Origin: Lachnospiraceae bacterium
GTDB lineage: Bacteria > Bacillota > Clostridia > Lachnospirales > Lachnospiraceae
NCBI GenBank assembly: GCA_014804675.1
Contig: JAAUZH010000032.1
Coordinates: forward strand, 20,487 to 84,486
DNA: 64,000 bases
Reading direction: 5' to 3'
Part shown: positions 40,029-40,257 of the stretch, one piece after another
Layout: every line of letters begins with the position of its first letter
How positions within the stretch are numbered: the first letter of the stretch is position 1
Position numbers and translations under genes: made by a program
The notes under the pieces: model-generated
The model's input: the letters and a program-made list of their open reading frames with translations, nothing else
Told to the model about the DNA's origin: nothing
Database searches by the model: none

Positions 40029-40257
40029 GATAACAGTTCAGCCCGCCTTGGGAGAGCGAGTGGATTTGGATGGGAGCCGGCAGGGCATATCGTAGTCTTC
40101 CGTGCCTTGGCAAAGACGCCGGTCCTTATGCACCGTTCTTTGGTGCATTAGTACCGCTGCGTCTTTGTAGAGCGAAAGCGTGCACGGAAGACTACGATAT
40201 GCCCTGCCGGCTCCCATCCAAATCCACTCGCTCTCCCAAGGCGGGCTGAACTGTTAC
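40029..40257. repeat. long-hairpin element copy A (perfect 75-bp inverted arms, structured 76-nt centre), MITE-like / candidate structured RNA
   Basis: 40031-40105 is the exact reverse complement of 40182-40256 (checked base by base). The centre has further pairing plus a conserved asymmetric loop. Flanking ctgtttt / ctatttt. See findings. Confidence 0.9.

Follow-up and report, generated by a model that had tools for sequence, protein, structure and literature searches.

The window analysed here is a 64-kb stretch of Lachnospiraceae DNA in which a folC-folE-HD-folP-folBK operon is preceded by a long hairpin element, copy A (Table 1). An inverted-repeat search of the window confirmed the perfect palindrome of the preliminary description, i.e., the two arms of 75 nt each (40031–40105 and 40182–40256) are 100% complementary and separated by 76 nt. 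The further pairing reported for this centre was found as described, with the two additional helices caaagacgc/gcgtctttg and atgcacc/ggtgcat, and the centre has the proposed polarity, as on the folC-sense strand a 14-nt bulge lies opposite a 5-nt bulge. The fold of the 228-nt copy A has an energy of −200.4 kcal/mol as RNA (z = −27) and of −128.8 kcal/mol as DNA (z = −26). The hairpin element is therefore real, and only its extent needed correction: the full span includes an outermost base on the folC side that was changed from G to A. The flanking heptamers ctgtttt and ctatttt had been suspected to be a decayed target-site duplication (TSD). This holds, with a length of 8 bp instead of 7; the two copies agree at 6/8 positions in the window and at 8/8 in the orthologous MAG copy L001. 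Open reading frames across the hairpin are mirror-image palindrome ORFs without RBS, in line with the earlier statement that it contains no gene.

Copy A had also been placed exactly at a composition boundary. Relatives remain homologous up to about 40339, however, so that the AT-rich island starts only about 83 nt beyond the element. This AT-rich block (40340–49000, about 29–33% GC) is missing from the orthologous folC-upstream regions of relatives and encodes a Peptidase_C39 ABC exporter (41787–43835) and two thioredoxin/PedC-like ORFs (40811–41768).

The diverged second copy noted before, copy B, was found as well. Its arms (62463–62541 and 62618–62696) have 79 nt, are 99% complementary and enclose a 76-nt centre. 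The plus strand of copy B is the counterpart of the minus strand of copy A, to which copy A was assigned because its asymmetric core reads there like the copy B plus strand; the folC mRNA is of this strand as well. With respect to the genes on either side, copy B has the opposite orientation. It is likewise intergenic, with the same kind of mirror-image ORFs lacking an RBS. Copies A and B are the only ones in the 64-kb window, where no third copy was found.

Table 1. Positions of the hairpin elements, their parts and neighbouring features in the window. TIR, terminal inverted repeat.
Feature	Position	Strand	Description
MITE copy A	40030..40257	-	228 bp; 75/75 arms, TIRs, 8-bp TSD; orthologous full copy in L001, empty site in L059, 35-bp remnant in L049
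TIR of copy A, folC side	40030..40041	+	ATAACAGTTCAG; first base mutated from G (G>A); consensus from 51 elements
TIR of copy A, distal side	40246..40257	+	CTGAACTGTTAC
TSD of copy A, copy 1	40022..40029	.	CTGTTTTG; same sequence as the two TSD copies of ortholog L001 and the one copy at the L059 empty site
TSD of copy A, copy 2, decayed	40258..40265	.	CTATTTTA; 6/8
Core module	40096..40190	-	14-nt bulge ACGCTTTCGCTCTA, helix CAAAGACGC/GCGTCTTTG, motif AGCGGTAC-TAA, apical stem-loop with loop AAAGAAC
MITE copy B	62464..62695	+	232 bp; 79-nt arms at 99%, TIRs same as in copy A
TSD of copy B, left	62456..62463	.	AGAAGTAT; 7/8 compared with right copy
TSD of copy B, right	62696..62703	.	AGAAGCAT
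folC	38630..39991	-	First gene of the folC-folE-HD-folP-folBK operon (ORF and Pfam); context, MITE probably in its 5'UTR
Promoter-like motif	40275..40309	-	TTGCTA / ATGGCA, 17–18 nt spacer, TAGTAT / TATGAT; located upstream of the insertion site; context outside the transposon

Terminal repeats, target duplications and spread

The 12-bp TIRs GTAACAGTTCAG...CTGAACTGTTAC are present at both ends of 51 elements. In a scan of public collections, the shared ends were found at 47 loci, two of them in one Lachnospiraceae MAG and 45 in metagenomes. They bound at least 45 other elements of 30–244 nt from gut-type metagenomes, and most of the interiors are unrelated to one another. Among candidate pairings of left and right ends, 28 have an 8-bp duplication matching at 8/8 positions and nine at 7/8. 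All but one of these 37 pairings lie outside ORFs of at least 150 aa, and their duplicated targets have an A+T content of 75%. As loci were collected by their end pattern, which biases the sampling, and the genome and metagenome scans used one pattern each, only rough values can be given for copy numbers and for the proportion of core copies that lack ends. Shared terminal inverted repeats, a target duplication with a fixed length of 8 bp, a small (30–244 bp) and non-coding body, and multiple copies at unrelated loci with insertion polymorphism, including an empty site (see below), bear out the earlier proposal of a MITE-like mobile element.

Copy A had no blastn match in plasmids or phages, and the sole match from pattern scans of viral contigs was one 30-nt mini element. 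In full-text literature, the end and core sequences matched only primers and 16S strings; a literature search for 'Chunjie' gave no match. The first 47 loci included no empty site.

Two further types of element carry these ends. Mini elements of 30–35 nt consist of the two 12-bp ends and a loop of 5–11 nt (L022 6331–6361; L032 6351–6382 and 7649–7679; L049 about 9932–9966; L096 11654–11683). Three have their own 7/8 target duplications, which suggests a very small minimal substrate for the transposase; one mini element sits in a prophage-like viral contig. A 240-nt subfamily (L003, L007, L011, L013, L016, L018–L020, L025, L026, L031, L034, L038, L039, L043) is not palindromic overall and has a hairpin of about 38 bp in its interior. 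In metagenome Ga0256404 this subfamily is very abundant and occurs on at least eight contigs.

Probable relationship to ISBst12-group insertion sequences

Ends of the IS66 family start with GTAA(GCG) and are accompanied by 8-bp repeats (PMC11946415). ISDge4, a member of the single-ORF ISBst12 group, has the ends GTGACTACTCAGCA / GTAACTGCTCAGCA, an 8-bp repeat and copy-and-paste behaviour (PMC12898284). We compared the MITE ends with published descriptions and with at least 20 elements bearing a PF03050 gene. In Geobacillus plasmids, PF03050 transposase genes are bounded by GTAACTATTCAGCC(C) ends and perfect 8-bp duplications. The ISGka4-like element of pHTA426, with a PF03050 and zf-IS66 transposase, has ends GTATCTATTCAGCCC / GTAACTATTCAGCCC and the duplication GACGAGTT, and ISGst1 has ends GTAACTATTCAGCC / GTAACTATTCACCC and the duplication AAAAGAAC. 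A Bacillus thuringiensis element (ends GTAACTACTCAGCT, duplication AATTTATC) and one from Herbinix sp., a member of the Lachnospiraceae (ends GTAACTATTCAGTC, duplication GATCTGTT), were also included. In seven of 12 loci, relatives on viral contigs carry GTAAC-type ends including GTAACTGTTCAGCC and GTAACTGTTCAGTC, and all seven have a perfect duplication; ends of these two sequences bound PF03050 genes in viral-contig and gut loci. L093 has the ends GTAACTGTTCAGTC / GTAACTATTCAGTA and the duplication AAATAATT. Gut-metagenome elements have ends GTAACTATTCAGCA and a perfect duplication in five of eight loci.

The MITE end GTAACAGTTCAG matches the ISBst12-group ends at 10–11 of 12 positions, and the 8-bp duplication is common to both. 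MITE ends have the GTAA(C) start followed by the ..TCAG motif, as the TIRs of ISGst1, the ISGka4-like pHTA426 element and ISDge4 start with GTAAC and continue with ..TTCAG. The closest ends of transposase-bearing elements agree at 11/12 positions (GTAACTGTTCAG). At position 6 the MITE has A and not T, and one right end of a transposase-bearing element, GTAACAATTCAG, also has A there. In contrast to the insertion sequences of about 1.6–1.8 kb, the MITE has 228 bp and no transposase, and its body is a near-perfect palindrome with a core module that is absent from the sampled insertion sequences. No similarity was found between the MITEs and these insertion sequences beyond the 12-bp ends, and no transposase-bearing partner with exact GTAACAGTTCAG ends in the approximately 660 kb of sequence examined. 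As insertion sequences of the ISBst12 group have nearly identical ends (GTAACTGTTCAG, GTAACTATTCAG) and likewise duplicate 8 bp, we infer that the MITE is moved by a single-ORF, PF03050-type DDE transposase of this group. The transposase would act in trans, and short ends alone seem to be needed; the same ends mobilise interiors of about 5 to about 220 nt.

Several candidates for an exact partner were rejected. Homologues of the Clostridium estertheticum transposase have GTTAC-type ends, with GTTACTRCTCAGGC used by the sister clade around the C. estertheticum element, and the Geobacillus/gut clade comes within 1–2 nt of the MITE ends, never to an exact match. Solitary ends in the collected loci are short decayed MITEs with housekeeping ORFs as neighbours. 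The YhgA/Rpn-like ORF of L035 was dropped, as it has no counterpart in L032. This ORF (PF04754, 1539–2762) lies in L035 1122–3041 between two direct 134-nt elements with the same ends; the region also contains a 71-nt hairpin element and has a composite-looking arrangement. In the ISBst12-group elements of L082–L095 and L060–L075, a leader of about 340 nt separates the left end from the transposase start and about 20 nt follow the stop. Their contigs typically have 1.6–2.2 kb in public assemblies, i.e., the element was assembled alone.

A conserved core between replaceable arms

By nhmmer and covariance-model searches, the core of about 80 nt was matched in 10 distinct contexts, in which the arms are unrelated and yet each self-complementary. 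These contexts are copies A and B with L001 and L002a, followed by L002b, L011b, L015, L040/L046, L027, L024/L029/L037 and L049b; weaker matches were obtained in L013 and L026. Conserved parts are the 5' bulge ACGCYTTCGCTC, the helix, the motif AGCGGTAC-(A)TAA, the loop (C)AAAKAC and the motif TAAGTACCGRCG. The apical stem covaries (GCACC/GGTGC versus CTGC/GCAG), and seven of the 15 predicted core pairs show compensated changes. In keeping the centre and replacing the arms, this pattern is opposite to that of an ordinary MITE. Some subfamilies, e.g., of the L009 and L003 types, have the same ends and no core. Two core-bearing hairpins lack the GTAACAGTTCAG ends (L002 4441–4661 and L011 9143–9278), for which reason the core may have a life independent of this transposon. 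The core had no match in Rfam or the literature; its orientation relative to genes was not consistent among the copies, and no associated protein was seen. It is most likely a putative cis-acting cargo or recognition module.

The 220-nt core hairpin at L002 4441–4661 (minus strand) is flanked by the 11-bp direct repeat GGTATTGGAAG, and GGAGCAGGCATATC occurs both in its outer arm and in the inner arm of copy A. Diverged core copies at L013 8639–8795 and L026 4323–4476 lie inside another repeat, which has about 40 nt in common with the 240-nt subfamily (CACTAGGCTCAAAAATACTTCGCCAAGTGTTCAATGTG). The L013 core copy starts with GTTACTGTTCAC, which is reminiscent of the GTTAC-type ends in the insertion-sequence clade of C. 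estertheticum.

About one fifth of the positions differ between copies A and B, with a mean column identity of 78% in a four-row alignment containing both strands of each. By our own count, the arms of A and B are distinguished by 18 compensated pairs, five indel columns mirrored on both arms and eight one-sided changes; RNAalifold on four copies found 20 of 99 pairs compensated. The indels separating the arms are of 4 nt and 1 nt, hence any reading frame is broken. G-T mismatches in the arms are not enriched over A-C on either strand, i.e., there is no G-U bias, and wobble pairs are almost absent from perfect copies. We therefore conclude that the complementarity is of the Watson-Crick kind at the DNA level and not of the RNA kind. 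Among the five copies of the young L009 subfamily, which are about 95% alike, most differences lie on one side only. Copy A has no arm mismatch in 75 bp, compared with seven in its ortholog L001, and simple decay does not predict the absence of mismatches in an old copy. The stem is probably kept at the DNA level, with propagating lineages retaining perfect arms, so that changes appear on both arms, while resident copies decay one arm at a time. Alternatively, lineages may occasionally be re-palindromised. The arm data fit propagation of intact-stem lineages, or such occasional re-palindromising, together with decay of resident copies.

The folC leader and the nature of the hairpin

The FolC protein of the window matched only its own metagenome contig, and orthologous loci were reached through FolC homologues. 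In folC sense, the window reads GGAAAGGA TAAAATAG (element) CAAAACAG AAAGTTTTTGGG. In the MAG L001, the full element lies between two copies of CAAAACAG, i.e., in a perfect duplication. L059 reads GGAAAGGA CAAAACAG AAAGTTTTTGGG, with one target copy and no element. At the identical site, L049–L052 contain a 35-bp stub composed of two ends, GTAACAGTTCAGACAGCAGCTGGCGGAACTGTTAT, between TAAAACGG and TAAAACAG, and L053 has no element upstream of folC. The folC genes share 90.6% (window and L001), 91.6% (window and L059) and 96.2% (L001 and L059) nucleotide identity. The empty-site comparison suggested in the preliminary description is thus provided by the unoccupied folC site of L059 and the remnant in L049–L052. 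In the simplest history, a single old insertion in an ancestor shared by several Lachnospiraceae lineages would have placed copy A between the folC promoter and the ribosome-binding site. It would later have been lost precisely in the L059 lineage, probably because the palindrome favoured slippage between the 8-bp repeats, and would have collapsed internally to the two-end stub in the L049 lineage. The occupancy pattern may also reflect a hot spot that was used repeatedly, or an exchange of alleles.

The weak promoter-like pair noticed earlier upstream of the element is present with a score of 9/12 in a consensus scan; its conservation extends over the window, L001, L049 and L059 with its empty site, and in part to L053. 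Since this motif lies upstream of the insertion point, copy A is placed between the probable promoter and the RBS, and the hairpin is probably part of the fol mRNA leader. Two alternatives had been offered, a transcript running through the hairpin or one starting within the 37 nt below it. The first appears better supported from the position of the motif, which lies upstream in every orthologous locus including the empty site. A scan of 39850–40850 found no terminator-like site. The mRNA strand after the stem reads UAUCAAAACAG without a T-run, and copy A does not combine the GC-rich stem and T-run of an intrinsic terminator.

We consider it very probable that copies A and B are non-autonomous MITEs with 12-bp TIRs and an 8-bp TSD, moved by an ISBst12/IS66-type transposase, with copy A in the folC leader. 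Selection for RNA folding, with the hairpin as a structured regulatory RNA (folC leader or small RNA) and its ends incidental, might instead account for the extremely stable fold, the many compensated pairs between copies, the conserved unpaired nucleotides and covarying apical stem of the core, and the retention of copy A in a probable folC 5'UTR in two lineages. We regard this as improbable, because mobility is shown by the 8-bp duplications found at dozens of unrelated sites, the same leader lacks the element in the closest relative, copy B and others occur in either orientation to flanking genes, G-U mismatches are not in excess over A-C, and the mRNA strand has neither a T-run after the stem nor a terminator-like site. 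Membership in a known Rfam ncRNA family, considered earlier, was answered negatively by covariance-model search: at the gathering threshold the window and seven other loci gave no match, and below it only a plant miRNA model was matched, in the generic manner of a long hairpin (30.9 bits, threshold 103). A tRNA/tmRNA scan yielded nothing. For the dedicated fol-leader RNA that had been suggested we found nothing in favour; the closest relative's element-free leader, the opposite orientation of copy B and the missing G-U bias speak against it. Fold-back chimeras can yield perfect inverted repeats, and an assembly artefact had been named as a possible source of the palindrome. This has practically no probability left, as the same element occupies the same site in an independently assembled MAG, it has an asymmetric centre and duplications on its flanks, and dozens of related elements occur in unrelated assemblies.

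Long imperfect hairpins with polarity from bulged bases, 30-nt hairpin versions and clusters of several copies in some contigs would also suit a site-specific recombination or HUH-type repeat (attC-like, REP/REPIN doublet or IS200/IS605-type ends) rather than a DDE derivative. REPIN/RAYT and integron attC hairpins are indeed similar as hairpin repeats with polarity from unpaired bases. They use HUH or tyrosine enzymes, however, and make no target duplication, whereas we found 28 perfect 8-bp duplications and ends matching DDE-type, ISBst12-group insertion sequences. The attC core consensus RYYYAAC/GTTRRRY is not matched by the ends GTAAC../..GTTAC(C/A/T), and no integrase or RAYT-like gene was among the inspected ORFs beside the copies; such an origin is very improbable. 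A larger, still minor chance goes to the core being a real functional unit, i.e., an ssDNA/RNA module or protein-binding site, riding different palindromic carriers with ISBst12-type ends as one vehicle. Its 10 contexts with unrelated self-complementary arms, the two core hairpins without ends, the L009- and L003-type subfamilies with ends and no core, and the seven compensated pairs of 15 point in this direction. Against it, there are only about 10 independent sequences, sampling favoured elements with these ends, the two end-less copies could be eroded MITEs, and no associated protein, strand bias or known motif match was found. Equally tentative is the extended proposal of an undescribed functional nucleic-acid module of Lachnospiraceae at the tip of self-correcting DNA palindromes, with ISBst12-type ends as one carrier and stems kept perfect by a hairpin-templated DNA process. 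If this were true, the core might act as a signal in folded single-stranded DNA, as a structured RNA or as a binding site for a protein.

ERIC/IRU, Correia elements, RUP, bcr1 and Nezha are small, non-coding, multi-copy intergenic elements that form long hairpins and are often co-transcribed with their neighbours. The MITEs described here resemble them as small non-coding multi-copy intergenic long hairpins, and differ in their ends, the 8-bp duplication and the Lachnospiraceae host, as well as in an unusually long and perfect stem (75–79 bp) with arms replaced between subfamilies and a centre that is kept. As palindromic MITEs with ISBst12/IS66-type ends, they are ordinary in kind and apparently form an undescribed superfamily in gut/rumen-type Lachnospiraceae. 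They link MITEs to the poorly studied single-ORF IS66/ISBst12 transposase group and give an identity to hairpins that are otherwise liable to be read as RNAs or assembly errors. The compensated divergence of the arms, together with the core, could inform how bacterial DNA maintains long palindromes. With a full element, a 35-bp stub and an empty site in close relatives, the folC locus is a natural experiment that allows testing the effect of a 5'UTR stem of about 100 bp on an essential operon.
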